A DNA stretch of 64,000 bases from a virus: the IMG/VR virus record IMGVR_UViG_3300031673_009915. One strand, written 5' to 3'. The stretch's first letter is position 1, and each line of letters opens with the position of its first letter. The notes beneath the pieces were generated by a model. The model made no database searches, was not told the DNA's origin, and saw only the letters and a list, made by a program, of their open reading frames with translations. The translations under genes were made by a program, and so were the position numbers. Positions 19,668 to 64,000 of this stretch are shown here, piece after piece.

Positions 19668-19670
19668 AAT

Positions 19671-20039
19671 TTATTCTTTCCTAATTACATCCTGATATAA
19701 TTCAATCTTATCTGTACCATTATCACTATTTAACCAAATCTCTTTTATATCATCTGTTGAATATTCTATCTGTGAACTATGATATTTCATACCGGCTTGG
19801 ATACTTTCTGTATCTCCTGATTTCAATGTGATTTGAATAAAACCGATTTCAGGAGTATTTATCAATATATCTCCGCTTGTCATTGTTTTATTTACTAAAG
19901 CTTCAATATTAGAATCCAATTTATTTTCTTTAATCATATATCTTATTTCAATAGCAGTATTAAGATCCGTAATATATTCACCATCTTGATCTTTTATTCC
20001 TATTTGAAATATAATATAGTTTCCCTTTTTTATTCGCAT
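19671..20039 (-). CDS. hypothetical protein (beta-rich, 122 aa)
   Basis: ORF in the accessory late block. ATG overlaps the stop of the upstream small ORF. Confidence 0.5.
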   Translation of the reverse strand: MRIKKGNYIIFQIGIKDQDGEYITDLNTAIEIRYMIKENKLDSNIEALVNKTMTSGDILINTPEIGFIQITLKSGDTESIQAGMKYHSSQIEYSTDDIKEIWLNSDNGTDKIELYQDVIRKE

Positions 20040-47699: not shown

Positions 47700-48539
47700 C
47701 TAATGAATGTTTTTTTTCCTGTTCCACAAAGGCCAGGGCCAGGAAGGTAAATTTTTTTCAAGATCAATAAAATAAATAATATTTAGTTCATCTCTTTTCA
47801 TATAGTCCTTCGCCAATTGTTCCTCCGTAAATCCTTTTTCGTATATGTATTCCAAAATTTTTTCTCTCTCCCTTATTAAAAAATTTGATAAATGACAATC
47901 CTCAAAATTTCTGGAATTAGCTTTTTCCGATACATCTATTTTATAGGGAGTGGACATATAATCATATTTTCCACATTTATTTTTTGGTACAAAAATGGAA
48001 CCAAACCTCCCTGTCATAACCCAGGAAGTAGAATCAACTGAATACCAAGGGTATCTAATCAATATACTTATAGAAGATACTCCAAAACCGTGGAATTTAA
48101 CTCTCGGAAAGCCTCTATCATCTATAATATAATCCATTACAACATCAAGCCATTCTATTTTTTGATTGGTAGTTTTGTCATTGGAAGGACTTATACCAAT
48201 ATAGTCCATTTCAGCAATCATTTTATTAAGCCATTCAAAATCCTCTCCTTGATGAAAAACATGAATCAATTTTTCCTTAGGAATACCTCGACCTATCATA
48301 TAATAATAATTATCGTATCCTTTTCTTGCAGAAAATTCTATTTGATCCTTAGTAGGTGGAATACCTGGTTTTCCGGGAATAACATCTAAATTTACCACAT
48401 AATCAAAATATTCATTGTATTGAAGAATAAAATCAATGTAAATATCTATATCAATCTCTATGCTTTTATTCCATGCGGAAAATGCACCCGAATCCAATAG
48501 CAATGATTTATTTTTATTTTTCATAGGAAGATTTGACAT
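47700..48539 (-). CDS. dpdA: DpdA-like DNA (7-deazaguanine) transglycosylase, TGT superfamily
   Basis: 279 aa with N-terminal LLLDSGAFSAW. Co-operonic with queC/D/E/F and folE. Confidence 0.6.
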   Translation of the reverse strand: MSNLPMKNKNKSLLLDSGAFSAWNKSIEIDIDIYIDFILQYNEYFDYVVNLDVIPGKPGIPPTKDQIEFSARKGYDNYYYMIGRGIPKEKLIHVFHQGEDFEWLNKMIAEMDYIGISPSNDKTTNQKIEWLDVVMDYIIDDRGFPRVKFHGFGVSSISILIRYPWYSVDSTSWVMTGRFGSIFVPKNKCGKYDYMSTPYKIDVSEKANSRNFEDCHLSNFLIREREKILEYIYEKGFTEEQLAKDYMKRDELNIIYFIDLEKNLPSWPWPLWNRKKNIH

Positions 48540-48927
48540 TCAGTTTTATTCCCCCTCTTGAATTGAATTCTGATAATACAACCATGGATAATGGACCGCA
48601 CACCTTGACCAAATCAAAAAGAATAGTATTGTTAATAGTCTCCATAAATGAAGGATGACTCCGAAATGAAAATAAATATAATTTTAATGACTTGGTTTCA
48701 ATACAACTTTGGTCAGGAATATACCGTATCGTTATTGTTGCATAGTCGGGCTGAGAGGTCTTTGGACATAGAGATGTAAATTCCGATGTAATTATCTCTA
48801 TTTCATATTTAATTCCCACAAATTGATTTTGAAAAACTTCAAGAATATTTTCTGAAGGTGTGTCAAATTTATATTCTGTTTTTTTATTTCCAAGAACATT
48901 CAAATGAGAAACATCATCTTTTTTCAT
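48514..48927 (-). CDS. queF: NADPH-dependent 7-cyano-7-deazaguanine (preQ0) reductase
   Basis: [38 protein letters not shown] closely parallels B. subtilis QueF [38 protein letters not shown]. Confidence 0.85.
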   Translation of the reverse strand: [137 protein letters not shown]

Positions 48928-48930
48928 TAC

Positions 48931-49641
48931 TTATATCCTCTCATTCATAATTTTATTATATTCCTTTCGTTGTGATAGAAATATAGGATCCTCGATTCCC
49001 GCTTCTTCAAATCCTTTTGATCTGAGGATACAAGAAGGACATTTTCCACAAGGCGGATATACTCCTTCATAACAAGTATGACTATAGGCAAGAGATTCCA
49101 TACAACCTTTAAGTGTCCTTGCCATCAAAATTGATTCTGCTTTCGTTTTCCACATCAATGGTGTGTGAATGGTAAATTCATAGTTCATTGCCAAAGACAG
49201 GCTTACCTGGAAACTTTTAATCGTGTTGTCCCGACAATCAGGATATCCCGAATAATCCATTTGGCATACTCCGCATACGATATCTGAAATACCTAGTGGA
49301 AATGCCTTCATGGCTGCTATGGTAAGCATATAGATATTTCTACCAGGAACGAAAGAAGCAGGCAAATCCTGTGCTGACCTATGTTTCCCATTTATAATCA
49401 TTTCTCTATTCGTAAAAAATAGAGCTGAATCAGCTATACCTTTCATAAGAATATCATGCATTTCAATCAATTCAATTTCCATCCTCTGTGAAATAATTCG
49501 TGCACTCTGTATCTCCAACCTATGGCGTTGTCCATAATCAATGTTCAACGCCAAAATATCTTCAAAATTTTCTTTCGCCCAATGCAGGCAAATGGTAGAA
49601 TCTTGTCCTCCTGAAAATAATACAAGAGCTTTCTTTTTCAT
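48931..49641 (-). CDS. queC: 7-cyano-7-deazaguanine synthase
   Basis: LVLFSGGQDSTICL PP-loop, DYGQRH, and the C-terminal Zn cluster C..CGKCPSC. Confidence 0.85.
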   Translation of the reverse strand: MKKKALVLFSGGQDSTICLHWAKENFEDILALNIDYGQRHRLEIQSARIISQRMEIELIEMHDILMKGIADSALFFTNREMIINGKHRSAQDLPASFVPGRNIYMLTIAAMKAFPLGISDIVCGVCQMDYSGYPDCRDNTIKSFQVSLSLAMNYEFTIHTPLMWKTKAESILMARTLKGCMESLAYSHTCYEGVYPPCGKCPSCILRSKGFEEAGIEDPIFLSQRKEYNKIMNERI

Positions 49642-49650
49642 TCCATCCTC

Positions 49651-50547
49651 CTATGATAATAATTTCATCAATTCTTCACGAGTATCTTGATTCTCTAAAA
49701 AAATACCTTTTAAAGAAGAAGTTACCATTTTTGAATTCTGTTTCTGTATTCCTCTCATCTGCATACATAGATGTTGTGCCTCTATTATACATGCCGCACC
49801 CAAAGGATCTAATTCATTCATAAGAAATTCAGTCACCTGGTTTCCAATTCGTTCCTGTATCTGAAGTCGTCTTGCGAATATTTCCAATATTCGCGCCAAC
49901 TTGGATATACCAACAATCTTTTCTTTTGGAATATATGCGATATGAGCTTTTCCAATGAAGGGCGACATATGATGCTCACACATACTATATAGTTCAATAT
50001 CCTTCAGAAGGATAATCGCATCATATCCCTCAGATCCAAATATCTTAATTTCCTTTTTAGGATCCCTATTATAACCAGAATATAATTCTTTCCACGAATT
50101 AACTACCCTTTTTGGAGTTTCTTGGAGACCTTCTCTATTGATATCTTCACCTATATATTGTAATTGCCTAATCACAGAATCTTGAATTGATCGGTATTCC
50201 TCTTCTCCCTCCCAAAAATAATGAACCCACTCATCTACTTCATACAACCACCGTGTCCTCTTTGACTTGATAAATCCTGTATTGATACTCTTATGAAGGG
50301 AGAAGAAATCATTTTTTGGAAAATAATTCCTTGTAGTCCCTCTGTCAATAATGTCATCTACTACTAATGTCTTTTCACTAATTTTATCCTTCAATACAAT
50401 AGGAAGATTCATTTCTTTTGATAATGCAACACCAAAACACATCCCTCCTCGGGGAACTGGGTATATACTTGTATATTCTGAAGATGCAAGAGATTTAGCA
50501 ATTGTTATTACATCAGAAAGTAATTGGGGTGCAGTATAATTTTTCAT
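49651..50547 (-). CDS. folE: fusion: type I phosphoribosyltransferase-like domain + GTP cyclohydrolase I
   Basis: N-terminal PRPP motif LVVDDIIDRGTT. The C-terminal part has REGLQETPKRV, SMCEHHMSPF, GISKLARI, QIQERIGNQ and HLCMQMRGI (GCH-I). Confidence 0.8.
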   Translation of the reverse strand: MKNYTAPQLLSDVITIAKSLASSEYTSIYPVPRGGMCFGVALSKEMNLPIVLKDKISEKTLVVDDIIDRGTTRNYFPKNDFFSLHKSINTGFIKSKRTRWLYEVDEWVHYFWEGEEEYRSIQDSVIRQLQYIGEDINREGLQETPKRVVNSWKELYSGYNRDPKKEIKIFGSEGYDAIILLKDIELYSMCEHHMSPFIGKAHIAYIPKEKIVGISKLARILEIFARRLQIQERIGNQVTEFLMNELDPLGAACIIEAQHLCMQMRGIQKQNSKMVTSSLKGIFLENQDTREELMKLLS

Positions 50548-50556
50548 AAGTCTCCT

Positions 50557-51189
50557 CTATCTCATTCCTATATATTTATGTAATTGTATATTGAGTTGTA
50601 CAAAATAATATTTATTTGCCTGTAACCAATCACATATAATTAAAGGTTCTAATTCTCCATGAATCGGACTGATTATAATATTTACAAATGGATTAATATC
50701 ATGTATATAATGTATCCAATCTTGTTTTGCATATAAATCATCTAAATCTTTTACTATAAATTTAATAAAATCATATTTTGCCAAGTATCTAATATCTACT
50801 AAAAATAAATCGCGTGATTTAAAATCAATCACATAACTTATTTGATCTTTTCTAACCCACTCTGAAAAATAAATTATAGGAACTGATCCATTAGTTTCAA
50901 TTACTATTTTTTTTTCTTTCTCTAAAAAAAACATTATCAATGCTTCCAATTTTTGTTTTTGAAGAAAAGGTTCTCCTCCCGTAATTGTTATAATATCTGT
51001 TTTAATTTTAGGAATGTCTACAAATCTCATCAATGACCCTTCCTCTACATCTACAACATCACAATAATCACAAGACAAATTACATCCCGCAAAGCGAATG
51101 AAAGTGGAAATACTTCCTTGACCAAATGCATTACATTCACCATTTATTGAAGTAAAAATTTCTTTTATTTTCATTATTTTTTCTTCCAT
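50557..51189 (-). CDS. queE: 7-carboxy-7-deazaguanine synthase (radical SAM)
   Basis: IKEIFTSINGE..FIRFAGCNLSCDYCD CxxxCxxC cluster. Confidence 0.8.
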   Translation of the reverse strand: MEEKIMKIKEIFTSINGECNAFGQGSISTFIRFAGCNLSCDYCDVVDVEEGSLMRFVDIPKIKTDIITITGGEPFLQKQKLEALIMFFLEKEKKIVIETNGSVPIIYFSEWVRKDQISYVIDFKSRDLFLVDIRYLAKYDFIKFIVKDLDDLYAKQDWIHYIHDINPFVNIIISPIHGELEPLIICDWLQANKYYFVQLNIQLHKYIGMR

Positions 51190-51536
51190 TCTGCATAAGA
51201 ATTAGATGTTTCATATAATCGAATCCTTTCAAGACCTTCTTGAAATATTAAAAATAATTTTTTTTGAATCCATAAAACCAGAGTTTCACATGTAGGTATT
51301 TCAAACATATCATTTAAAAATTTATGATCTAATTGTTCAATTATACATTCATTCACAATCTTTTTCAAATCTCCAAAATCCATAATAAATGAAGAATAAT
51401 TTTTATAAGAACTAGGACATTTTGAAATTTCAATTTCTAATTTAAAGGAATGTCCGTGTATAAGAGCACATTTTCCTTTATAATCAGGTAAAAAATGAGC
51501 CGTTTCGAATTCAAATCTTTTCGTAATTGATAACAT
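51174..51536 (-). CDS. queD: 6-carboxy-5,6,7,8-tetrahydropterin synthase
   Basis: FEFETAHFLP..KCALIHGHSFKLEIEI is the PTPS/QueD signature. Confidence 0.8.
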   Translation of the reverse strand: MLSITKRFEFETAHFLPDYKGKCALIHGHSFKLEIEISKCPSSYKNYSSFIMDFGDLKKIVNECIIEQLDHKFLNDMFEIPTCETLVLWIQKKLFLIFQEGLERIRLYETSNSYAEWKKK

Positions 51537-51610: not shown

Positions 51611-52981
51611 TTAAAATTTTTTCCAGGTGCTGTCCAAATGAGCTTTTCCTACAGCATATTGATAAATAACCGTAACTTCTTCTTCTGTTTGAAAATTCTC
51701 ATTTCGATTAGCTAACATAGAAATGCGCATGATCTGTTTTCTTTTTTCTTCTTTATTTTGATTTAAAGCCATCATGTGAGTAACATGAGCAAGTTTTCTA
51801 ATATCTTCCGCAATTTCTTCTTCGCTGATATCTTTCGTAAAAGTCGAACGAGTAGATTGACTCGATGTGATCAATAATCCATTTATCTCTTGCGCTAATG
51901 CTCTAGCAGAACTCCACGTATGGTCTATTCGATGTCGCGCATCTTTTGGACTATCTCTTTCAGGAGAAGATATATCAGCATAATCCCACACAATCACATC
52001 AGGAAAAAAATTATCATAATAGGCTAAATTATACACTTCTGTTCGGATATCATCTACATTCATTGATCGAGCAGGTCTACACAATAAACGCATTGCTCCT
52101 TTAACCATCATTTGCATTGCTTTGACTTTTTTTAAAGCTGCTTTAACAGTAATTCCTTTCTTCCGAACATTTTTATATTCAATCATTTCTTCCTCATTTA
52201 AATAAGGAATAGACACAGATTTAGAAGGTTTTTTTGTAGAGGAAAGAAAATTTTGATATAAACGCATGATCATTTGATTTCGAGGCATTTCCATACTAAT
52301 AAAAAGAACTTTTAAATCATTTAACATAGCTTGTATTGCAAATTCTTCAAGCCACCAACTTTTACCCCGCTTCATAGGGCCTATAATTCCAAAAAAGTCA
52401 CTTCTACATAAAGGTCCAATCAATTCACCAAGAGCACCAGGCATAGAAAATAAAATGTCTTCTTCATAATTTATTCCTGTTATTATTGCTTGTTTATCAT
52501 TTAACACATCAATTGAACTTGATAAAGGTCGTTGAACACGGACATGATTAGTAATACACAATTCAGCTTCGTCAATTTTTCCTGTATAAATATTCCCTTG
52601 AATTTTTTCAATAAGAATTTGTAAATTTCTTTCAGCTAAATATTTTTCTGCACTATCAATTAAAAATTGCTCATTAAAATTTTCTAATTTTTCATATTCC
52701 TGAGATAATTCAGATAAAAACTTTTCTATTATATTTTTATCTTCTTCTCTAAGATTTTCTTCGTTATATTTAAAAAGTTCTTCAATAATTTGTTTTGGAG
52801 CTTTTTTATATTTTTCAAAATATTCTATACACCATTTAGCAATTATTTTAGAATATGAACTTTGTAAATATTTTACTTTTAATATTTTAGAAATTTCTTG
52901 AATAAATCTATCCGAAACAATTAAACCAGTTATAACATTTTTTTCTGGTTTAGAATCAATAATCTTTTTTTCTATTTTCAT
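51611..52981 (-). CDS. DnaB-like replicative helicase
   Basis: 456 aa. Walker A GIIGPMKRGKSWW, then a RecA-like C-terminal domain (..LITSSQSTR..). Confidence 0.75.
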   Translation of the reverse strand: MKIEKKIIDSKPEKNVITGLIVSDRFIQEISKILKVKYLQSSYSKIIAKWCIEYFEKYKKAPKQIIEELFKYNEENLREEDKNIIEKFLSELSQEYEKLENFNEQFLIDSAEKYLAERNLQILIEKIQGNIYTGKIDEAELCITNHVRVQRPLSSSIDVLNDKQAIITGINYEEDILFSMPGALGELIGPLCRSDFFGIIGPMKRGKSWWLEEFAIQAMLNDLKVLFISMEMPRNQMIMRLYQNFLSSTKKPSKSVSIPYLNEEEMIEYKNVRKKGITVKAALKKVKAMQMMVKGAMRLLCRPARSMNVDDIRTEVYNLAYYDNFFPDVIVWDYADISSPERDSPKDARHRIDHTWSSARALAQEINGLLITSSQSTRSTFTKDISEEEIAEDIRKLAHVTHMMALNQNKEEKRKQIMRISMLANRNENFQTEEEVTVIYQYAVGKAHLDSTWKKF

Positions 52982-52996
52982 ATTTACCTTTTATTT

Positions 52997-54367
52997 TTAT
53001 TCATAATATTCTTCTTCTTGTTTATTTATTAAATTATTTTTCTTTCTTTCTATTTCTTTTAAAAATTTATCATAATTCCATTTCAAATCTTTCAATTGAT
53101 TTTTATCTGGATATAGATTATAACTATAGTATTGTTTTACCCACATGATGAAATTTTTCCAATTAAAACTATCTAATTTTAAAAAACTAGGATGAAGTTT
53201 GTTCATTCTTTTTAACCATGCTATGTGTTGATTAAAAAACGGTTCAAAATCATCCTTCGATCCAAACCAACTAGAAAATCCTCCCATCATATATTTTCCT
53301 ATTTTATTTTGAATTGAAAAAATTTCATCATATAAATCATTAAACATATAGGTTAATGATTTTAATTCTTTTTGATTATTAGCATATTCTTTAAAAATTT
53401 CTTTATATTTTTCAAATATTTTATTATTTTTTGGTTTAATCTGATTTTCAAATGGTTCTGGAAGATGAATAGCTACTTTGAAAAAGAAACTATATCCTGA
53501 TCTATTATTATATATTAAAATATCTAATCCTTTTTTAATTATTTTTTTATCATGTGGCCAGTATCCTTCTTGGTGTAATAAAGCCAGTCGATTTAATATT
53601 TCTTTTATTTCTTCATCTTTCCATTTTTTATTTAAAATTTCTTTAGAAATATTATTATTTTTTATAAATTCTTGATTTATATTATGTTTTTTTAAAAAAG
53701 TTCCATTTTTTAATTGTTTAATTAGAGAATCAATTTTTTTATAAGTTTTACTAGATAATCTATGTTTTCTAACATTTTTTAAATTATTCCAATATTCTAT
53801 TAGTTCATTTTTTGTATTAAATGTATTTATTGTTTTTTCTTTAGATAAATCTATTTGATAATTTAAATTTATTTTGGGCGATTGTTTTAAATCGCCATGT
53901 AATATATCTTTAGATATATTACTATTCTCTATTGTATTCTCTATTGTATTCTCTATTAAAGATTCTTGAATTTTAAAGGAATGTTTCTTAAATTTTTCTT
54001 TTTCGTTTCTTGAATTTTTAAGTAACCATTCTAAAAATTTTTCTTTATCTAATCTATAATGAACAGTCGGATTTCCTCTAGCTTTTTTAATTTTCATTTC
54101 TAAAATTCCTTCTTTTTCAAACCATTTTGATGCTTTTCTAATTTGATATTCACTTAGATATATTTCTTCATACCATTCTTTATATGTTTTAAATAACCAA
54201 TCTCCTTTCATTTTATCTTGCCAATATAATAATTGATTTAAAAATGTAGCTCTTTCAAAATTTCCTGTTATTTTTATAAATATTACAGGAGTAACTATCA
54301 TATTTCCTTGTCCTGAATATTGAGTAATTAAATTCATTACATCAATACGAGATAATTTTTCACTCAT
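52997..54367 (-). CDS. replication initiator / replisome organiser-like protein (N-terminal winged helix)
   Basis: ..ATFLNQLLYWQDK..SEYQIRKASKWFEKEGILEMK..NPTVHYRLD.. wHTH pattern. Located upstream of the helicase gene. Confidence 0.55.
   Translation of the reverse strand: MSEKLSRIDVMNLITQYSGQGNMIVTPVIFIKITGNFERATFLNQLLYWQDKMKGDWLFKTYKEWYEEIYLSEYQIRKASKWFEKEGILEMKIKKARGNPTVHYRLDKEKFLEWLLKNSRNEKEKFKKHSFKIQESLIENTIENTIENSNISKDILHGDLKQSPKINLNYQIDLSKEKTINTFNTKNELIEYWNNLKNVRKHRLSSKTYKKIDSLIKQLKNGTFLKKHNINQEFIKNNNISKEILNKKWKDEEIKEILNRLALLHQEGYWPHDKKIIKKGLDILIYNNRSGYSFFFKVAIHLPEPFENQIKPKNNKIFEKYKEIFKEYANNQKELKSLTYMFNDLYDEIFSIQNKIGKYMMGGFSSWFGSKDDFEPFFNQHIAWLKRMNKLHPSFLKLDSFNWKNFIMWVKQYYSYNLYPDKNQLKDLKWNYDKFLKEIERKKNNLINKQEEEYYE
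53924..53957. repeat. 12-nt tandem repeat, about 2.8 copies, inside the initiator gene (iteron-like)
   Basis: attctctattgt at 53924 and 53936, with a partial copy at 53948. It encodes ENTIENTIENTI. Confidence 0.85.
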
Positions 54368-54423
54368 ATTTACCTTCTTTTTTTATTTGTTTTATTTTAA
54401 AATATTTTTAGCATTAAGAACAT

Positions 54424-54495
54424 TAGCACAGGCAGGATTCGAACCTGCATTTTCTAGAATATGAATCTAGAGAGTTTCCTTTACTCTACTGTGCA
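54424..54495 (-). tRNA. tRNA with CAU anticodon (Met, or Ile2 if lysidine-modified)
   Basis: Hand-folded cloverleaf. Acceptor stem has 6 bp plus a U1-U72 mismatch. D stem is GAGU/ACUC with a GG loop. Anticodon stem is CUAGA/UCUAG with loop UUCAUAU. T arm is GCAGG-UUCGAAU-CCUGC. Discriminator is A; no CCA is encoded. Confidence 0.75.
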
Positions 54496-54501
54496 ATAAA
54501 A

Positions 54502-55419: not shown

Positions 55420-56985
55420 ATGAGAAAAGCACTCAAAAAAAATAATGAAATCCTTATAAAATTTCAAGAATATGATTCTTATATTTTTAATAATCTATTA
55501 AATCATATTAAAAAAATTGAAGGGCGGTATTGGAATTCAAACACCAAAACATGGTCATTACCTTTATCTAAAAAAAACATAGAAATAATATCTGAATTAG
55601 GTTTTATTCTTGATGTAGATTTAAAAAATTTTTTTGAACAACATAAAAATATCAATGTACAAAAAGAGATTGAAAAAATTCAAATAAAAAAAAATATCTC
55701 TTTAAAACTAAGACCTTATCAAATTTTTCACACAAAAAACATTCTTTATTCTTTTATAAATGAAAATGCTGCATTAGATGCTAGTGACACAGGAACAGGA
55801 AAAACTTATGTGGCTCTTGCTGTAGCAAAACAATTAAAACTCTTTCCTATTATTCTTACAAGAAAATCAGCAATTCATCAATGGAAAAAAGTTGCAGAAT
55901 ATTTTAAATTAGATTGTTATGTGTCTAATTATGAACAATTTAAATATAATAATACATCTTATCTGGAATCTTATAAAACAGATGAAAATATAAATATTTA
56001 TAAATGGAATAATATGGAAAATTCTGTGTTAATTTTTGATGAAGTTCATAAATGTAAAAATAGAAAAACACTCAATTCTAAAATTTTATTACAAGCAAAA
56101 AAACAAAATTTAAAAATTTTAGCTCTTTCTGCTACTATTGCAGATAATCCATTACAAATGTATGCAATATCTCAGATATTAAATATTTGTAATGAAAAAT
56201 TATACTGGTCTTGGATTTATCAAAGAGGTGTTTCTAAAAATTATTGGGGGGGATTGATTTTTAATTGTTTAGAAAAAAATCTTAAAAAAATACATAAAGA
56301 CATATTTCCAAAAAAAGGAAGTCGTATTTCTATAAAAGAATTAGGTGATATTTTCCCTAAAAATATGATTATTTCAGAGTGTTGCGAAATGAAAGAATCT
56401 ATTATAATTCAAAATTGTTATGAAATAATAAAAGAAGAATTGCGAAAATTAAAAGAAAAAACAATAAAAGACAAAGCTTCTATTCTAACTCAGATATTAA
56501 GAGAAAGACAAAAAATAGAATTGTTAAAAATTTCTACTTTTATAGAACTTGCAGAAGATTATGTAGAAGAAGGAGCTTCTGTTATTATTTTTGTTAATTT
56601 CAAAGAAACTGTTAATATTCTATGCGAAAAATTAAATACTACTTGTGTTATTACAGGAGATACTTCATTAGAAGACAGACAAAAAAATATAGAAGATTTT
56701 CAAACAGATAAAAAAAGGATTATTATTTGTAATTCTAAAGCAGGAGGTGAAAGTATTAGTCTTCATGATATTAACGGTAAATATAACAGAATAGTTTTAA
56801 TATCTCCTACTTATTCCGCTCAAGATTTAATACAAATTTTAGGAAGAGCGCACCGGGATGGTGGAAAAAGTCCGGTAATTCAAAAAATACTTTTTTGTTC
56901 AAATACAAAAGAAGAAGAGATAGCTGAAAAAGTAGAACAAAAAATTAAAAATATAAAACTTATAAATGATGGAGATTTAATTTAA
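55420..56985 (+). CDS. SNF2/SF2-family helicase
   Basis: Motif I DASDTGTGKTYVALAVA, motif II LIFDEVHKCKN, motif VI QILGRAHRDGG. Confidence 0.8.
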   Translation: MRKALKKNNEILIKFQEYDSYIFNNLLNHIKKIEGRYWNSNTKTWSLPLSKKNIEIISELGFILDVDLKNFFEQHKNINVQKEIEKIQIKKNISLKLRPYQIFHTKNILYSFINENAALDASDTGTGKTYVALAVAKQLKLFPIILTRKSAIHQWKKVAEYFKLDCYVSNYEQFKYNNTSYLESYKTDENINIYKWNNMENSVLIFDEVHKCKNRKTLNSKILLQAKKQNLKILALSATIADNPLQMYAISQILNICNEKLYWSWIYQRGVSKNYWGGLIFNCLEKNLKKIHKDIFPKKGSRISIKELGDIFPKNMIISECCEMKESIIIQNCYEIIKEELRKLKEKTIKDKASILTQILRERQKIELLKISTFIELAEDYVEEGASVIIFVNFKETVNILCEKLNTTCVITGDTSLEDRQKNIEDFQTDKKRIIICNSKAGGESISLHDINGKYNRIVLISPTYSAQDLIQILGRAHRDGGKSPVIQKILFCSNTKEEEIAEKVEQKIKNIKLINDGDLI

Positions 56986-57002
56986 AAAAAGGAGGAAAAT
57001 AA

Positions 57003-58694
57003 ATGTTAGAATTATTTCAAACCGTTACTTTTATAAATGGAATAACAATATTGATTTTTGGAATTTTTATTTTAATAAAAAATAGAAATCAGAAATCAGT
57101 TCGGGCTTTCTTTCTTTTCTCTGTATTTTTTGCCGTTTGGATGATTGCTTTTTCCTTTCAAGTTATAGAAAAAAATTATAATAATTCATTGATATTAACT
57201 AAAATATTTATGCTGGGTGCTAATTTTATTCCTGTTGCTTTTTTATATTTTATTTGTATTATTATTGATGTTTGTAATAAGAAAATAATAAAATATATTG
57301 TATCTTTATTTTGGATATGGGCAATTATATTGAGTCTGTTTTTATTGACACCTTTTTATATAGATTATTTAAAACCAAAACTTATTTTTCATTGGTGGCT
57401 TGTTCCAGGTTTGTTTTTTCATTTTCAATTTATAACTACAGAAATCATATTTTTAATATGTATTTTTTTGGTTATAAAAAATCATAAAAAAATTGGACAA
57501 CAATCTAAAGATTTATTACTTGGAGCAGGTGTTGCGATTATATCTGGAAGTTCTAACTATTATTTATGTTATGATATTTTTATTATGCCTTATTTAAATT
57601 TTTTAATGCCTGTACAATTGATGGTATATGTGTATTGTATAATGAAATATAATATAATGGATGTTAGAAAATATCTTTTAAAAGGTGTGTTTTCTTATTT
57701 AATTTTTTCTATAATTTTTTCTATTCCTATTTTTGTTATACATTTTATATACATACCATTTGATTTATTTCAAATTATTTTAATAATGATATGTATTTTT
57801 TTAGCTTTAATTTATAAAAATTCTTTTATAATAGGAGAATTGGAAAATAAAGTTGATATTCGAACAGAAGAATTACAGTCAGCTAATGAAGAACTTGAAA
57901 CAATAAATACAGAATTAGTTACAACAAGAGACAAACTTTGGAGTGAAATGCAAATCGCAAAAAAAATTCAAACAGTTCTTCTTCCTAAGAATCCAAAAAT
58001 AAAAGGATATGAAATATCTGCATACATGAAACCTGCTGATGATGTAGGAGGAGATTATTATGATGTGATAAATGTTACTAATGGAAGCTGGTTGATTATA
58101 GGTGATGTGTCTGGTCATGGGGTGCCTGCGGGTCTTGTTATGATGATGGTGCAAACATGTATACACAACACATTAAATATTTTTCCAGATATTTCTCCTT
58201 CTAAATTATTAAAGATAATAAATAAAACAATTACTGAAAATATTCAGTTAATGGGTGAAGATAAATATATGACGATGACTGTTTTTAATATTAACAAAAA
58301 TGATAAATTTATTTTTGCAGGTCTTCATCAAAATATACTAATTTATAGAAAAAAAACAAATGTTATTGAATCAATTCAAACAGATGGAATGTGGTTGGGT
58401 TTAATGAAAAATATTCAAAATATGCTAAAAAATGATTGTTTTAAATTGGATGAAGGTGATATTTTATTATTATACACTGATGGTATAACAGAGGCATGGA
58501 AAAAAGAAAGTAATTATGAAAAACGAGAAATTGAAAAAGACATGTTTGGAGAAAAAAAATTAAAACAAATTTTCTTTAATTCAGAAAAAACCACACCTGT
58601 TCTTATACAAAATAATATTATTAAAGAATTAAAAAAATATACATGTAAAGATGATGTTACAATGCTTATTATAAAAAAGGAGGAAAATTTATGA
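57003..58694 (+). CDS. membrane sensor PP2C-type phosphatase (multi-TM N-domain + SpoIIE/RsbU-like domain)
   Basis: About 7 N-terminal TM helices, a coiled-coil linker, then ..ADDVGGDYYDVI..LIIGDVSGHGVPAGLVMMMV..LLLYTDGITEA..DDVTMLIIK, the SpoIIE-family signature. Confidence 0.8.
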   Translation: MLELFQTVTFINGITILIFGIFILIKNRNQKSVRAFFLFSVFFAVWMIAFSFQVIEKNYNNSLILTKIFMLGANFIPVAFLYFICIIIDVCNKKIIKYIVSLFWIWAIILSLFLLTPFYIDYLKPKLIFHWWLVPGLFFHFQFITTEIIFLICIFLVIKNHKKIGQQSKDLLLGAGVAIISGSSNYYLCYDIFIMPYLNFLMPVQLMVYVYCIMKYNIMDVRKYLLKGVFSYLIFSIIFSIPIFVIHFIYIPFDLFQIILIMICIFLALIYKNSFIIGELENKVDIRTEELQSANEELETINTELVTTRDKLWSEMQIAKKIQTVLLPKNPKIKGYEISAYMKPADDVGGDYYDVINVTNGSWLIIGDVSGHGVPAGLVMMMVQTCIHNTLNIFPDISPSKLLKIINKTITENIQLMGEDKYMTMTVFNINKNDKFIFAGLHQNILIYRKKTNVIESIQTDGMWLGLMKNIQNMLKNDCFKLDEGDILLLYTDGITEAWKKESNYEKREIEKDMFGEKKLKQIFFNSEKTTPVLIQNNIIKELKKYTCKDDVTMLIIKKEENL

Positions 58695-58891
58695 AACAAG
58701 CACAAAAAAAAGCGATATGGGATTTTTATTTTTTTTTAGTAGAATGGTATGAAATAAATCCAGAATCTTCACAAATAGATTTTACATATTTAATTCAATT
58801 AAGAGATGCTATGATAAAAGAAAAAATAAAAGATTCTCTTTCTATTCTTTCAGAAATAATTCAATTACATAATCAAAATAACAATGTTTGA
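58691..58891 (+). CDS. hypothetical 66-aa protein, stand-alone copy of the C-domain of 59261..59746
   Basis: ATGA overlap with the phosphatase stop. Residues 4-66 are near-identical to the C-terminus of the downstream Zn-ribbon protein. Confidence 0.5.
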   Translation: MKQAQKKAIWDFYFFLVEWYEINPESSQIDFTYLIQLRDAMIKEKIKDSLSILSEIIQLHNQNNNV

Positions 58892-58918
58892 TATAGAAAG
58901 ATTTCTTCTTGAATATAA
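58700..58918. repeat. 219-bp direct repeat, copy A
   Basis: Matches 59555-59773 with 1 mismatch seen by eye. Confidence 0.9.
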
Positions 58919-58973
58919 AAATCAAAAATTGTTTTAAAGAAATAAAGAAAAAAATAAAAGGAATGCAATAAAA

Positions 58974-59264
58974 ATGACAATTGTAGAATATATCAAATAT
59001 ATAAAACGAAGATGTGATTGTAATAAGGGACTAGTGTATTGGAAAAAAGAATGGAAAAGTAGAATAAGAGCACGAGGACACTGGATGAATGATTATGCTC
59101 AGTTACTTACAAATACAAGCAAGTATAGAACAAAATATCGATATATAGCAGAATGTGAATTGTGCGGAAAATTCTACTTCGCAACAAAAAGAAAAAAAGA
59201 AATGATAATATCTTTAAAATTTCTTAATTTTGGTTATAAAAAAAAGGAATATAATAAAAAATGA
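58974..59264 (+). CDS. hypothetical basic protein with CxC/CxxC motifs
   Basis: 96-aa ORF inside the segment bracketed by the 219-bp repeats. Confidence 0.5.
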   Translation: MTIVEYIKYIKRRCDCNKGLVYWKKEWKSRIRARGHWMNDYAQLLTNTSKYRTKYRYIAECELCGKFYFATKRKKEMIISLKFLNFGYKKKEYNKK

Positions 59265-59746
59265 AATTTGATGCAAAAAAATTCTTAAAAGATTATAATA
59301 TATCTTATAATACCGAAGGCAGTAATTGTCAAGAAGGATGGATAAATATAACTTGCCCATTTTGTAATGACATTTCTAATCACGGGGGATTTAATTTAGA
59401 AAAAGGTTATTATAATTGCTGGAAATGTAAACATCACCATCTTGATAATGTTGTTAGTGCTCTTTTGTCTTGCAATGTTTCAAAAGCAAAACAAATAATA
59501 AAAGAATATGAAAGTTTTATACCTGCTTACACAGAAAAGTCAGAAATATTTTCAGCACAAAAAAAAGCGGTATGGGATTTTTATTTTTTTTTAGTAGAAT
59601 GGTATGAAATAAATCCAGAATCTTCACAAATAGATTTTACATATTTAATTCAATTAAGAGATGCTATGATAAAAGAAAAAATAAAAGATTCTCTTTCTAT
59701 TCTTTCAGAAATAATTCAATTACATAATCAAAATAACAATGTTTGA
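59261..59746 (+). CDS. primase-type zinc-ribbon domain protein (paralog of the primase N-terminus) fused to the 66-aa domain
   Basis: ..NCQEGWINITCPFCNDISNHGGFNLEKGYYNCWKCKHH.. parallels the primase ..NCQEGWVNITCPFCDDDANHGGFNIEKEYYNCWKCGFH.. Confidence 0.6.
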   Translation: MKFDAKKFLKDYNISYNTEGSNCQEGWINITCPFCNDISNHGGFNLEKGYYNCWKCKHHHLDNVVSALLSCNVSKAKQIIKEYESFIPAYTEKSEIFSAQKKAVWDFYFFLVEWYEINPESSQIDFTYLIQLRDAMIKEKIKDSLSILSEIIQLHNQNNNV

Positions 59747-59773
59747 TATAGAAAGATTTCTTCTTGAATATAA
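59555..59773. repeat. 219-bp direct repeat, copy B
   Basis: Matches 58700-58918. Confidence 0.9.
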
Positions 59774-60620
59774 TGTATCAACCTGGACAGAAGGAAAAAA
59801 TTGTCAAGAAGGATGGGTCAATATAACCTGTCCTTTTTGTGATGATGATGCTAATCATGGAGGATTTAATATAGAAAAAGAATATTATAATTGTTGGAAA
59901 TGTGGTTTTCATTCTTATAAAGAAATTTTAAAAAAATTTTCAGATATATCATATAAAGAATTATTAGAAGAATATTTTATAAATTTTAATATAAAAAAGA
60001 AAAAAGATTCTTTAATAAAAAAATCTTTTTCTTTTCCTTTCGGTACAAGACAAATTTCAGAAAGACATAAAAAATATTTGTTAAATAGAAATTTTGATCC
60101 TGATCAATTAGAAAAGGATTGGTTTCTATTAGGAACAGATTGTTTAGGAGATTATAAATTTAGAATCGTAATTCCTATTATATTTAATAATAAAATAGTT
60201 TCTTTTCAATGCAGAGATATTACAGACAAACAAGTTTTACGATATAAAGCATGTGAAAAAGAAAAAGAAATTATTCATCATAAAAATATTTTATATGGAT
60301 TAGATTATATTCAAAATGATCGATGTGTGCTTGTTGAAGGTGTTACAGATGTGTGGAGAATTGGAAAAGGGGCTGTATCCTGTTTTGGTACAGGATATAC
60401 AAAAAATCAAATATATCTTCTTTCTACTTATGCAAAACAAATATTTATTTTATTTGATTCTGTAAGAATAGCTCAGAAGATAGCTGAAAAAATAGGATGG
60501 GAATTATCTTTACTAAATAATACAATAGAAATTATTACAATACCTTCTTCTATAAAAGATCCAGCAGAAATGAGTTTTGAAGATGCTTTATATTTACGAA
60601 AAAATTTATTAAAATATTGA
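59739..60620 (+). CDS. DNA primase (Zn-ribbon + TOPRIM)
   Basis: N-terminal CPFC..H..CWKC ribbon. TOPRIM-like CVLVEGVTDVWRIGKG and IFILFDS. Confidence 0.65.
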   Translation: MFDIERFLLEYNVSTWTEGKNCQEGWVNITCPFCDDDANHGGFNIEKEYYNCWKCGFHSYKEILKKFSDISYKELLEEYFINFNIKKKKDSLIKKSFSFPFGTRQISERHKKYLLNRNFDPDQLEKDWFLLGTDCLGDYKFRIVIPIIFNNKIVSFQCRDITDKQVLRYKACEKEKEIIHHKNILYGLDYIQNDRCVLVEGVTDVWRIGKGAVSCFGTGYTKNQIYLLSTYAKQIFILFDSVRIAQKIAEKIGWELSLLNNTIEIITIPSSIKDPAEMSFEDALYLRKNLLKY

Positions 60621-61017: not shown

Positions 61018-61242
61018 ATGAAAGAATATAAAAGATTACAAGAATTTGCTGATAGAGATTATGAAGGAAATTTGTTGGGTTATTCAGTTTCTGATAGTAT
61101 ACTTGACGAAATATATCAGGATGACAATTCTCCTGAACAAGATGTTTTAGTAGAATATTTTGAAAAAAAATATAAATGTGAACTTTCATTTATAGACAAT
61201 CCAAATTCAAAAGAGGGTGGATATAAAATATATCCTAAATAA
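61018..61242 (+). CDS. hypothetical acidic protein
   Basis: 74-aa ORF. Confidence 0.5.
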   Translation: MKEYKRLQEFADRDYEGNLLGYSVSDSILDEIYQDDNSPEQDVLVEYFEKKYKCELSFIDNPNSKEGGYKIYPK

Positions 61243-61249
61243 AAAGTTT

Positions 61250-61425
61250 ATAATTACACTCTGGAACAGATTAAGGAATATTATGAATATATTACAGGAT
61301 ATTAAAATGAAAAGAATAATAAAAAATAAAAAAGGTGAGATAATATTTGAAGGTGACGATCTGCGTAATGCAGACTTGCATGACGCAAATTGTAAAAGTG
61401 CAAATTTTCAAGAAGCAGATTGTAG
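61250..61425 (+). repeat. 176-nt perfect direct repeat, copy 1 (orphan PRP 3' stub + junction + 5' cap)
   Basis: Identical by eye to 61854-62029 (offset 604 nt). 61250-61306 encodes only the last ~17 codons (..NYTLEQIKEYYEYITGY) of a PRP gene, with no body upstream. Confidence 0.85.
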
Positions 61426-61909
61426 TTATGCAGATTTTTATAAAGCACATTGTGTAGATGCTAATTTTTATAAAGCATGTTGTTGGAGAACAAATTTTCA
61501 AGAAGCAAATTGTAAAGATGCAAATTTTAAAGAAGTGCTTTGTGCAAGTGCAAATTTTGAAAAAGCGGATTTACGTGGTGTGAATTTTAACAAAACAAAT
61601 TTACTTTATACAAATTTAAAAAATGCATATTGTTATGATGCTAATTTTGAGAAAGCAGATTTGCGTGGTGTAAATTTTCATAAAACAAATTTACTTTATG
61701 CAAATTTAAAAGATATAATAACAGATACACCAATTTTACAAATAAATGGAAGCCAAGATCAAGTAATAAAGTGGAAAAATCAAATTCAAATCGGCTGCAT
61801 AATTGAAGAAAAAGAATGGTGGCTTGAAAATTATAATGAAACAATGAAAGAACATAATTACACTCTGGAACAGATTAAGGAATATTATGAATATATTACA
61901 GGATATTAA
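61307..61909 (+). CDS. pentapeptide-repeat protein, paralog 6
   Basis: Start set at MKRIIKNKKGEIIFEGDDLRNADL. The ORF-track start at 61217 reads through the orphan stub. Canonical architecture. Confidence 0.9.
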   Translation: MKRIIKNKKGEIIFEGDDLRNADLHDANCKSANFQEADCSYADFYKAHCVDANFYKACCWRTNFQEANCKDANFKEVLCASANFEKADLRGVNFNKTNLLYTNLKNAYCYDANFEKADLRGVNFHKTNLLYANLKDIITDTPILQINGSQDQVIKWKNQIQIGCIIEEKEWWLENYNETMKEHNYTLEQIKEYYEYITGY

Positions 61910-61910
61910 A

Positions 61911-62573
61911 ATGAAAAGAATAATAAAAAATAAAAAAGGTGAGATAATATTTGAAGGTGACGATCTGCGTAATGCAGACTTGCATGACGCAAATTGTAAA
62001 AGTGCAAATTTTCAAGAAGCAGATTGTAGACATGCAAATTTTCAAAAAGCAAATTGTAGCTATGCTAATTTTCAAAAAGCAGATTGCAGGTATGCTGATT
62101 TTCAAAAAGCAAATTGTAGCTATGCTAATTTTAAGGAAGCAAATTGTAGCTATGCTAATTTTCAAAATGTAGCTTTCCCCTTTGCAGATTTTCAAAAAAC
62201 AGATTGCAGGCATGCAAATTTTAAAAATTCTAATTGTTTTGGTGCTTTTTTTGGAAAAGCAGATTTACAGGATGCAAATTTTAAAAAAGCACGTTGTAGG
62301 TATGCAGATTTTGAGAAAGCAGATTTGCATGGTGTGAATTTCCACAAAACAGATTTACTTCATGCAAATTTAAAAGATATAATAACAGATACACCAATTT
62401 TACAAATAAATGGAAGCCGAGATCAAGTGATAAAGTGGAAAAATCAAATTCAGATAGGATATGTTATTGAACAAAAAAATTGGTGGTTAGAAAATTATAA
62501 TGAAACAATGCAAGAACATAATTACACTCTGGAACAAATTAAAGAATATTATAAATATATTACAGGATATTAA
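61911..62573 (+). CDS. pentapeptide-repeat protein, paralog 7
   Basis: TAA-A-ATG junction. Canonical architecture. Confidence 0.9.
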   Translation: MKRIIKNKKGEIIFEGDDLRNADLHDANCKSANFQEADCRHANFQKANCSYANFQKADCRYADFQKANCSYANFKEANCSYANFQNVAFPFADFQKTDCRHANFKNSNCFGAFFGKADLQDANFKKARCRYADFEKADLHGVNFHKTDLLHANLKDIITDTPILQINGSRDQVIKWKNQIQIGYVIEQKNWWLENYNETMQEHNYTLEQIKEYYKYITGY

Positions 62574-62574
62574 A

Positions 62575-63357
62575 ATGAAAAGAGTAATAAAAAATAAAAA
62601 AGGTGCAATAATATTTGAAGGAAATAATTTGAGAGGTGCAGATTTACGTGATGCGGATTGTTGGCATGCAGATTTTCAAAGATTGGACTGCTGGAATGTA
62701 AATTTTCAAGAAGCAAATTGTATAGAGGCAAATTTTTATAAATCAAATTGTGGGTATGCAAATTTTGAAGAAACGAATTGTTGGAATGTAAATTTTCAAG
62801 AAGCAGATTTACATGATGCAGCTTTTGAAAAAGCATATTGTGAAGGTGTGAATTTTCAAAAAGCAATTTGTAGTAATGCAGATTTTTATAAAGCACATTG
62901 TGTAGATGCTAATTTTTATAAAGCAGATTGTTGGCGTGCAAATTTTCAAGAAGCAGATTTTCAAGAAGCAGATTTTTATAAAGCACATTGTGTAGATGCT
63001 AATTTTTATAAAGCAGATTGTTGGCGTGCTAATTTTGAAGAAGCAAATTGTAGGAATGTGAATTTTCAAGAAGCAAATTGTGAAGGTGCAAATTTTGAGA
63101 AAGCAGATTTGCGTGGTGTAAATTTTCACAAAACAGATTTACTTCATGCAAATTTAAAAGATATAATAATAGATACTCCAATTTTACAAATAAATGGAAG
63201 CCGAGATCAATTTATAAAATGGAAAGATCAAATTCAAATCGGCTGCATAATTGAACAAAAAGATTGGTGGTTGAAGAATTATAAAAAAACAATGAAAGAA
63301 TATAATTACACACCAGAGCAAATTAAAGAATATTATGAATATATTATAGGATATTAA
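62575..63357 (+). CDS. pentapeptide-repeat protein, paralog 8 (260 aa)
   Basis: TAA-A-ATG junction. Contains an internal 90-nt-period duplication at 62878-63033. Confidence 0.9.
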   Translation: MKRVIKNKKGAIIFEGNNLRGADLRDADCWHADFQRLDCWNVNFQEANCIEANFYKSNCGYANFEETNCWNVNFQEADLHDAAFEKAYCEGVNFQKAICSNADFYKAHCVDANFYKADCWRANFQEADFQEADFYKAHCVDANFYKADCWRANFEEANCRNVNFQEANCEGANFEKADLRGVNFHKTDLLHANLKDIIIDTPILQINGSRDQFIKWKDQIQIGCIIEQKDWWLKNYKKTMKEYNYTPEQIKEYYEYIIGY

Positions 63358-63358
63358 A

Positions 63359-64000
63359 ATGAAAAGAGTAATAAAAAATAAAAAAGGTGCGATAATATTT
63401 GAAGGAGATGATTTGCGTAATGCAGATTTTCAAAAAGCAAATTGTAGCTATGCTAATTTTCAAGAAGCAGATTGTTGGTGCGCGAGTTTTTATAAATCAG
63501 ATTGTAAAGATGCTAATTTTCAAGAAGCATATTGTTGGGGTGCAAATTTTGAAAAAGCAGATTTGCGTGGTGCTAATTTTAAGGAAGCATATTGTTGGAG
63601 TGCAAATTTTAAAGAAGCGATTTGTGCAAGTGCAAATTTTGAGAAAGCAGGTTGTAGTTATGCAGATTTTAAAGGATCAGATTGTAATGGGGCAAGTTTT
63701 AAAAAAGCAGGTTGTCGGAGAACAAATTTTGAGAAAGCGGGTTGTACAGAGGCTAATTTTCAAAATGCAGATTGTTGGCGTGCTAATTTTGAAGAAGCAA
63801 ATTGTAGGAATGTGAATTTTCAAGAAGCAAATTGTGAAGGTGCAAATTTTGAGAAAGCAGATTTGCGTGGTGTAAATTTTCATAAAACAAATTTACTTTA
63901 TGCAAATTTAAAAGGTATAATAACAGATACTCCAATTATACAAATAAATGGAAGCAAACATCACGTAATAAAATGGAAAGATCAAATTCAAATCGGCTGC
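63359..64000 (+). CDS. pentapeptide-repeat protein, paralog 9 (3' end outside window)
   Basis: ATG at 63359, 1 nt after the upstream TAA, with the frame open to the window edge. MKRVIKNKKGAIIFEGDDLRNADFQKANCSYANF.. and the C-domain start ..IQINGSKHHVIKWKDQIQIGC. It is not in the ORF track because no stop is reached. Confidence 0.85.
   Translation, partial: MKRVIKNKKGAIIFEGDDLRNADFQKANCSYANFQEADCWCASFYKSDCKDANFQEAYCWGANFEKADLRGANFKEAYCWSANFKEAICASANFEKAGCSYADFKGSDCNGASFKKAGCRRTNFEKAGCTEANFQNADCWRANFEEANCRNVNFQEANCEGANFEKADLRGVNFHKTNLLYANLKGIITDTPIIQINGSKHHVIKWKDQIQIGC

Follow-up and report, generated by a model that had tools for sequence, protein, structure and literature searches.

Partner-switching modules, built from a PP2C phosphatase, a STAS protein, and a GHKL kinase, are among the commonest switches of stress responses, development, and behavior in bacteria, and have lately been linked to the control of anti-phage immune operons. 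Phages, for their part, are known to encode quorum-sensing receptors as well as sigma and anti-sigma factors. A 64,000-nt stretch of viral DNA (IMG/VR record IMGVR_UViG_3300031673_009915, hereafter the window) encodes a predicted membrane sensor phosphatase of the SpoIIE/RsbU type together with a separate STAS protein. By analogy with the bacterial systems, and with a probability put at about 50%, this signal-gated phosphatase might keep STAS proteins of the phage or of its host dephosphorylated and so subvert the partner-switching output of the host.

Several described systems resemble the phage phosphatase in part. RsbU and RsbP from Bacillus subtilis likewise join a SpoIIE-family PP2C domain to an N-terminal regulatory module via a linker that forms a dimeric coiled coil and governs the switch helices, and their substrate is a single-domain STAS protein, RsbV-P (PMC12143880, PMC8256260); the canonical partner-switching mechanism has been reviewed (PMC8256260). 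Unlike the polytopic phage protein, however, both are soluble, activated by RsbT or RsbQ, and encoded with rsbV-rsbW-sigB. SpoIIE from B. subtilis, which gave the Pfam family its name, is polytopic (10 transmembrane, TM, helices) and carries a C-terminal PP2C domain (PDB ID: 5mqh, a Foldseek match of the phage protein) acting on the STAS protein SpoIIAA, but its TM region is unrelated, it has a central FtsZ-binding domain and no such S-helix linker, and it is an 827-residue, sporulation-specific protein. SiaA from the Pseudomonas aeruginosa SiaABCD system and RsbU from Chlamydia are membrane-anchored sensor PP2Cs with STAS-like partners (SiaC and RsbV1, respectively), whereas their inputs are HAMP or periplasmic sensor domains and their identity to the phage protein in structural alignment is about 18-19%. 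Leptospira and its relatives possess 7TMR-DISM-PP2C receptors, in which a 7TM receptor, an S-helix, and a PP2C domain follow one another, and many of the top matches of the phage protein are so built; 7TMR-DISM receptors with PP2C outputs were reportedly described by Anantharaman and Aravind. The phage protein differs from them in having neither a PF07695/PF07696 match nor a DISMED domain, its sensor being of the HisKA_7TM type, which elsewhere is mostly attached to histidine kinases.

The same three-part architecture, at about 515-560 residues, is found in bacterial HisKA_7TM-SpoIIE proteins (e.g., P0004, P0069, and P0084) from metagenome-assembled genomes (MAGs) of Spirochaetota, Myxococcota, and Desulfobacterales, labeled as "serine phosphatase RsbU" or "SpoIIE family protein phosphatase". 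These experimentally uncharacterized proteins are chromosomal, with housekeeping neighbors, and their 7TM halves are at most about 35% identical to that of the phage. Among viruses, the nearest parallel is provided by the LuxR-type and VqmA-type quorum-sensing receptors of phages (PMC6456758), which are also host-type sensors borne by a virus and presumably read a cellular or environmental cue. They are soluble transcription factors placed over the lysis genes of the phage itself, whereas the protein considered here is predicted to combine a membrane sensor with an enzymatic, phospho-signaling output.

The open reading frame (ORF) given for the phosphatase in a preliminary description of the window was borne out to the nucleotide (Table 1), as was the complete PP2C/SpoIIE signature ascribed to it: GGDYYD lies at residues 349-354, GDVSGHG at 367-373, YTDG at 491-494, and DDVT at 550-553. 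The SpoIIE profile (PF07228) is matched over nearly its full length, from position 5 to 190 of 192, at E = 2.2e-31 and with a score of 109.8 bits (cut-off 25). The metal ligands correspond to D351/D354, D368 (with G369), D493, and D550/D551. In an alignment of 30 sequences with bacterial homologs D351, D354, D368, D493, D550, and D551 are invariant, so that the catalytic aspartates on which that description hinged are all conserved. A pseudo-phosphatase comparable to Escherichia coli RssB was ruled out, as all metal ligands are present. An AlphaFold2 (AF2) model, with a mean predicted local distance difference test score (pLDDT) of 78 and of about 90 across the PP2C domain, and a Foldseek search support the α-β-β-α sandwich fold. 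The top Foldseek match is the PP2C domain of SiaA (PDB ID: 6k4e, TM-score 0.79, E = 1.8e-11), followed by P. aeruginosa RssB, Rv1364c, SpoIIE, and RsbX, as well as PDB IDs 3ke6 and 3w40, and a PDB sequence search agrees on the nearest catalytic-domain structures. The score against the SiaA equivalog NF038263 (55.9 bits) lies far below its cut-off of 700. Judged from these features, the protein is very probably an active membrane PP2C. As a protein it is unremarkable within its known bacterial family; the unusual part is its viral, kinase-less setting.

The N-terminal half was likened in the preliminary description to 7TM receptors with about seven TM helices. A 7TM sensor is indeed present, but it belongs to the HisKA_7TM family (PF16927, residues 12-221, E = 1.1e-8, 35.6 bits with the cut-off at 28.6) and not to 7TMR-DISM: at E ≤ 0.01 the protein has no match to PF07695 or PF07696, and its N-terminus begins directly with TM1, with no extracellular domain. 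The count of seven holds for the core, whose helices span residues 2-26, 31-55, 59-87, 94-122, 137-159, 166-189, and 196-215 in the AF2 model, whereas hydropathy and AF2 add two further helices, for a total of about nine. The second of these is continuous with the linker helix, and a single AF2 helix (residues 255-325) runs on to the catalytic domain. The core retains the family motifs LTPFYIDYLKPKLIFHWWLVPG and SGSSNYYLCYDIFIMPYLN, and the loop motifs FTPxF..PxLxFxFWPxPG and GGSTNYFLWYxIPIPPYGN are kept. Loop charges, read by the positive-inside rule, fit an N-out/C-in topology, which would place the phosphatase domain in the cytoplasm. A HMMER scan with residues 1-275 returned 1,171 representatives, of which only one, the relative described below, exceeds 35% identity. 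All 69 top matches scanned carry HisKA_7TM; 39 of them possess a histidine-kinase ATPase domain and 28 a GAF domain, whereas SpoIIE occurs in only two. On these comparisons, the phage sensor is a 7TM module of the histidine-kinase type, and its fusion to PP2C is a minority arrangement.

The coiled coil proposed earlier between sensor and phosphatase is recognizable as an S-helix-type segment, a class defined as a coiled coil of about 40 residues that joins a sensor to a catalytic domain and bears a central "ERT" (PMC1592074). R287 and T288, the counterparts of this signature, are nearly invariant in the 30-sequence alignment, the phage protein reading IRT (E replaced by I), and the consensus LExKVxERTxELxxAxxEL is conserved across homologs with 7TMR-DISM, HAMP, MASE2, or GAF inputs. 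The assignment is made from the alignment consensus, the AF2 helix, and the published definition. Activation through such a coiled coil was demonstrated for RsbU, and the same mechanism has been put forward for PPM phosphatases in general (PMC12143880).

The second component, the STAS protein, is likewise genuine, with a Pfam match and a conserved acceptor serine. Its best PDB match is TM1442, and Ser59, within YLNSTGIGV, aligns to the phospho-acceptor serine of the DSAG motif. The match to the "anti-sigma factor antagonist" family TIGR00377 (7.4e-12) stays under the cut-off, and an AF2 prediction made with no alignment reaches a pLDDT of 41. A tblastn search against 50,697 deposited phage records gave no match, and a word-based homolog search returned only the protein itself. 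The gene is tightly packed: it overlaps the upstream gene, which encodes a 136-residue coiled-coil/TM protein, and stops 3 nt before the prohead protease gene.

Among the components of a partner switch, the phage thus has an input PP2C and a STAS protein with a phosphorylatable serine, while neither a kinase nor an output protein, such as a sigma factor, was found. Among the called genes of the whole circular genome, no precomputed Pfam match to HATPase_c, HATPase_c_2, or Pkinase is present, although a very divergent kinase could escape such profiles, and no called gene matches a sigma70-family profile. A kinase hidden beside the STAS gene was ruled out, as the 136-residue product consists of a coiled coil and a TM helix, a neighboring 122-residue product is beta-rich, and neither has a relevant Pfam match. 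The locus had been characterized as a kinase-less two-thirds of a partner-switching cascade; the phosphatase, the STAS protein, and the lack of a kinase at Pfam sensitivity all stand, whereas the two proteins are at most a candidate enzyme-substrate pair within this phage.

The link between phosphatase and STAS draws most of its strength from a second phage. The only full-length relative of the phosphatase (P0002, 54% identity) is encoded on a 3.6-kb contig (L005), where the partial helicase upstream is 79% identical to the helicase of the window, indicating a sister phage. The gene order in this contig is helicase, phosphatase, STAS, a 68-residue ORF, a pentapeptide-repeat protein, and an apparent primase start, the last read, unscored, from zinc-finger-like sequence at the contig end. 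The STAS gene of the sister phage (114 residues) overlaps the 3' end of the phosphatase gene; its product matches the Pfam family (1.3e-7), has Ser58 at the acceptor position, and falls under the TIGR00377 cut-off. The Asn-Ser pair at the acceptor position is kept in both phage STAS proteins, and the 68-residue protein is a homolog of the 66-residue ORF product of the window (21 identities in 69 alignment columns). Two related phages therefore each pair the phosphatase with a STAS protein, in an operon in the case of the sister phage, and this operonic pairing is the best argument available that the two are functionally linked. Identity between the two phosphatases amounts to 56-57% in the sensor, 50% in PP2C, and 65% in the linker; the sensor is conserved as well as the catalytic domain, which argues that it is probably functional and not a mere anchor. 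Of three contigs examined whose helicases are about 50% identical to that of the window, one ends past the helicase and two continue with small ORFs or other genes and no phosphatase, so the phosphatase is an accessory gene of a narrow clade. Helicase-anchored scans of IMG/VR and of Joint Genome Institute (JGI) metagenomes returned only helicases with 24-40% identity.

Hundreds of bacterial "SpoIIE family protein phosphatases" share 50-58% identity with the linker and PP2C half, and they come mainly from Spirochaetota/Leptospirales, Myxococcota, and Desulfobacterales MAGs. These homologs have 7TMR-DISM, HAMP, MASE2, GAF, or HisKA_7TM inputs, and the HisKA_7TM+SpoIIE architecture occurs on ordinary bacterial chromosomes as well. 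A neighbor-joining tree of PP2C halves is an unresolved star in which the two phage proteins do not pair, many bacterial proteins being about 55-59% identical to each of them; that the two phage genes have an ancestor in common is suggested by the shared sensor half and by synteny. Spirochaetota and Myxococcota possess large paralogous families of these phosphatases, and some of the loci adjoin a 7TM-HATPase_c_2 kinase. In the bacterial MAG GCA_964529415.1 (contig L099, 3652-9878), a close PP2C homolog lies between a second, 7TMR-DISM-SpoIIE paralog and a 7TMR-DISM-PAS-HATPase_c_2 protein, in which an RsbW-type kinase domain is joined to a membrane sensor. This arrangement suggests that in the donor lineage kinases and phosphatases paired at the membrane act jointly on STAS proteins encoded elsewhere.

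In phages, proteins of this kind appear to be rare, in keeping with the earlier remark that a membrane sensor phosphatase is uncommon there. PHROGs contains no family for the phosphatase or for the STAS protein of the window. A tblastn search with the phosphatase against the same 50,697 phage records gave five matches, all to the PP2C domain. One of these, OR845010.1, was rejected as a phage relative, being an unannotated UNVERIFIED_ORG record with the ORF sizes and order of the Staphylococcus aureus chromosomal rsbU-rsbV-rsbW-sigB operon; by extension, the other four (OR850167.1, OR846974.1, OR849442.1, and OR847461.1; one from Staphylococcus and three from Listeria) are assumed to be host DNA. 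Motif scans of IMG/VR with the phosphatase, a further set of motifs, and both STAS proteins found no homolog, and a fold search of BFVD retrieved a single phage PP2C, the 271-residue "response regulator" of Myoviridae sp. ctNQV2, the other matches being PP2Cs of giant viruses. In none of the phage resources searched was a sensor PP2C with a STAS partner found, and full-text searches of the literature turned up no description of a phage-encoded SpoIIE/RsbU-type phosphatase or partner-switch module. As the phage scans used exact peptide patterns or deposited records, their sensitivity is limited, and they support rarity, not absence or uniqueness.

These observations can be combined into a mechanism, for which we infer the phosphatase activity, its substrate, its signal, the direction of its effect, and the host. 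A myovirus would have acquired the phosphatase gene from bacteria and would express it with the helicase/primase operon. By analogy with RsbU, RsbP, and SpoIIE, the product would be an inner-membrane-anchored serine phosphatase of the SpoIIE/RsbU branch of PP2C. Lacking an extracellular domain, the HisKA_7TM sensor would most likely read a membrane-intrinsic or small-ligand signal; it would dimerize and act through the S-helix coiled coil on the α1/α2 switch of the PP2C dimer, whereupon the Mn2+ site would form. The phosphate would then be taken off the conserved serine of a single-domain STAS protein, either that of the phage (Ser59), RsbV-like proteins of the host, or both. Since no GHKL kinase or sigma factor was detected in the phage, both kinase and output would have to be supplied by the host. 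The dephosphorylated STAS protein might sequester an RsbW-type anti-sigma kinase of the host, locking the partner-switching output in a single state during infection. If the module is active, it would demonstrate that viruses need no kinase of their own to connect a signal-gated eraser enzyme and a decoy antagonist to a phospho-switch of the host. The protein would also offer a compact, naturally minimized HisKA_7TM/S-helix/PP2C example for studying the 7TM control of PPM phosphatases. For the time being, with neither phage nor host in culture, it is of limited practical use.

Subversion of a host partner switch is favored, besides the operonic pairing, by the nearest PP2C folds, which belong to STAS-directed or partner-switch phosphatases (SiaA, Rv1364c, SpoIIE, and RsbX). 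A number of observations weigh against it. The STAS gene of the window lies 38 kb from the phosphatase gene, on the other strand, within a late head-morphogenesis block; it is probably expressed late, while the phosphatase looks early or middle, and the two may not act together. Direct adjacency of phosphatase and STAS genes was seen once, on the 3.6-kb sister contig, and no similarity between the two phage STAS proteins is detectable, both of which score under the NCBIfam cut-off for anti-sigma antagonists. The bacterial phosphatase homologs are usually orphans and not neighbors of STAS genes. No host could be assigned; the terminase is closest to those of Bacteroides phages, at only 45% identity.

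A broader version, offered as a tentative possibility, holds that the virulent phage owns the environment- or membrane-sensing input to a phospho-serine partner switch (the nine-TM phosphatase and an orphan STAS protein) and, with a host kinase, takes over sigma or defense regulation or times its late functions; the STAS protein might even be produced along with the head or packaged in it. If true, this would be the first signal-gated PP2C/STAS module encoded by a virus. Its defense branch can be considered separately. STAS/GHKL-kinase pairs control immune operons and a toxin-antitoxin system (PMC13373217): phosphorylation of the STAS repressor CapS by the GHKL kinase CapK, for instance, leads to de-repression of immune operons or release of VapC-type toxins. 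As SpoIIE-type PP2Cs act on phospho-STAS proteins, the phage phosphatase could reverse the serine phosphorylation that activates such anti-phage responses, its own STAS protein serving as a kinase decoy. The narrow distribution of the gene is typical of anti-defense genes, and the seven tandem pentapeptide-repeat paralogs in the same operon plausibly have anti-defense or host-takeover roles. This explanation is nevertheless unlikely: PADLOC gives no match for the phosphatase or the STAS protein of the window and a marginal one only for the STAS protein of the sister phage, the winged helix-turn-helix domain of CapS-type proteins is absent from the phage STAS proteins, CapK/CapS is not known for the host, and the nine-TM sensor is conserved even though a simple eraser enzyme would not need it.

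Somewhat less likely still is an output other than a sigma factor, through which the phage would rewire host behavior in the manner of SiaA/SiaC (cyclic di-GMP and biofilm), HsbR/HsbA (motility), or SypE/SypA. Surface receptors, motility, or aggregation could be affected, resulting, e.g., in superinfection exclusion or better spread. Many partner switches have outputs of this kind (PMC8256260), the best PDB and NCBIfam matches of the phage phosphatase are SiaA and RssB, and the Spirochaetota and Myxococcota, groups with the closest homologs, hold the paralogous phosphatase families noted above, including the loci with an adjacent 7TM-HATPase_c_2 kinase. The phosphatase is, however, no SiaA ortholog by its equivalog score, and an output cannot be read from sequence; the proposed mechanism overlaps with that of host partner-switch subversion and differs from it only in the output.

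A switch internal to the phage is improbable. In such a scheme the phosphatase would read the envelope or energy state of the host and gate a late function through the head-module STAS protein, e.g., prohead protease or assembly, lysis timing, or a STAS protein packaged for the next cell. The packing of the STAS gene between its overlapping upstream gene and the prohead protease, its retained acceptor serine, and its lack of detectable relatives, as expected of a phage-adapted protein, would fit. A kinase would still be needed, though, and none is matched by Pfam in the phage genome; the STAS gene of the sister phage lies in the replication operon and not in a head block, no precedent is known, and morons often sit in structural operons with no functional link to them. 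Finally, capture of a host gene as a recent, neutral passenger would explain the same architecture on bacterial chromosomes and the 55-58% identity of the PP2C half to many bacterial proteins, but is very improbable given the same locus in two phages with copies diverged to 54% identity and intact catalytic and sensor motifs, a composition fully ameliorated to the phage, a strong ribosome-binding site in a tightly packed operon, and an identical, intact gene in several samples.

Table 1. Coordinates of the phosphatase gene, its predicted domains, and associated features in the window
Feature	Position	Strand	Details
Single-domain STAS protein (anti-sigma-antagonist type)	18929-19273	-	114 residues; Pfam STAS E = 4.2e-11, 43 bits versus 22.6
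SF2 (ResIII/Helicase_C, SNF2-like) helicase	55420-56985	+	Pfam; first gene of the plus-strand operon; synteny anchor
Shine-Dalgarno AGGAGG	56990-56995	+	7 nt 5' of the phosphatase ATG; read from the sequence
Membrane sensor/S-helix/PP2C (SpoIIE/RsbU-type) serine phosphatase gene	57003-58694	+	563 residues; ATG start, TGA stop
HisKA_7TM sensor core, TM1-7	57036-57665	+	Residues 12-221; Pfam
Two further predicted TM helices	57690-57827	+	Residues 230-248 and 253/255-275; hydropathy 2.5; AF2, low pLDDT
S-helix-type coiled-coil linker	57828-57992	+	Residues 276-330, LENKVDIRTEELQSANEEL...; within AF2 helix 255-325
PP2C/SpoIIE catalytic domain	58086-58676	+	Pfam match at residues 362-558; fold begins near residue 331
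66-residue ORF	58691-58891	+	ATG overlaps the phosphatase stop (ATGA)
220-nt direct repeat, copy 1	58699-58918	+	66-residue ORF and first 35 nt of the primase gene
220-nt direct repeat, copy 2	59554-59773	+	Continues into the true start of the primase gene (59739)
DnaG-type primase (Zn ribbon, DnaG_N, Toprim)	59739-60620	+	Pfam; downstream edge of the accessory slot

The surroundings of the gene are those of a phage throughout. An independent 59-kb JGI contig (L001) differs from the window by nine mismatches in 16,998 nt and crosses both of its ends, and the coordinates of the two imply a circle of 64,365 bp. The genome is a complete, circularly assembling myovirus of about 64.4 kb, from an uncultured tailed phage. 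An origin of the phosphatase gene in flanking host DNA, a possibility named in the preliminary description, was ruled out, as the spanning contig carries phage genes throughout; the window is a true phage genome with no host flank. Genes recognized by PHROGs and Pfam include those of the large terminase, portal, a Mu-F-like protein, prohead protease, and cement and major capsid proteins, as well as sheath, tape measure, and the baseplate wedge. Also encoded are PolA (carrying a uracil-DNA-glycosylase, UDG, domain), a DnaB-like helicase, RecA, and SbcCD-like proteins, and a queC/D/E/F-folE 7-deazaguanine cluster is present. No integrase was seen in the same gene identification, and the phage is a virulent-type myovirus. 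Its GC content is 27%, and some Spirochaetes MAG loci have 29-32%.

The flanking of the phosphatase gene by an SNF2-type helicase and a primase in a plus-strand operon was confirmed by Pfam matches. The operon had been called an early/replication one, of which "early" reflects gene order only. Helicase stop and phosphatase start are separated by 17 nt, a gap indicative of co-transcription, and a site scan found no terminator-like site between the two genes. Across the scan, promoter and terminator sites were no more numerous than in shuffled sequence. The GC content of the phosphatase gene (23.6%) is that of the helicase (23.6%) and close to that of the primase (24.1%), i.e., its composition is fully ameliorated to the phage. 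An identical intact phosphatase protein is encoded on eight contigs from several samples.

Downstream, both the ATGA coupling of the phosphatase to the 66-residue ORF and the duplication of that ORF were verified in the sequence, the two copies of the 220-nt repeat being identical at 219 of 220 nt. The ORF product has no match in Pfam, NCBIfam, or PADLOC. Copy 1 leaves a 17-codon primase stub at 58884-58937, while in copy 2 the 66-residue sequence is fused in frame to a primase-like zinc-finger paralog (ORF 59261-59746). Contigs of two other assemblies end at the repeat. The copies enclose a 96-residue, cysteine-rich ORF and the zinc-finger paralog, whose finger (59312-59428) is 83% identical at the nucleotide level to that of the true primase (59787-59903). 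The arrangement looks like a local duplication or insertion ahead of the primase gene, with no tie to the function of the phosphatase.

Upstream of the STAS gene, at 19257-20039 (minus strand), are the genes of the 136-residue coiled-coil protein with one TM helix and of the 122-residue beta-rich protein, neither with a family match. Genes for a membrane-type and a STAS protein are an unusual find between that of a 796-residue unknown protein and that of the prohead protease.

The minus-strand replication region has features of its own. At 48514-51536, QueF-, QueC-, GTP cyclohydrolase I-, radical-SAM (QueE-like)-, and PTPS (QueD-like)-family genes lie beside the DnaB-like helicase gene, a cluster that suggests 7-deazaguanine modification of the phage DNA; a similar cluster is present in distant relatives (L102). 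The 850-residue DNA polymerase I (43776-46328, minus strand) has precomputed matches to UDG (PF03167), 3'-5' exonuclease, and PolA domains, that is, a UDG-like domain is fused to the polymerase. Two neighboring ORFs (51611-52981 and 52997-54367, minus strand) encode proteins of exactly 456 residues each; the first is DnaB_C-like, and the second, which has no family match, may be a helicase loader or replication initiator. A single tRNA-Met (CAT; 54423-54496, minus strand) lies in the gap separating the minus-strand replication genes from the divergent promoter region.

The plus-strand operon that contains the phosphatase closes with the seven pentapeptide-repeat paralogs (208-260 residues), which wrap around the circle (61217-64000 and 1-1903 of the window; 14281-19266 on L001). 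In L005 they have just one homolog, located after the STAS and 68-residue ORF genes. These proteins may be DNA mimics or anti-defense proteins, and they share a common non-repeat C-terminal domain (…INGSxDQVIKWKNQIQIGC…EYYxYITGY).

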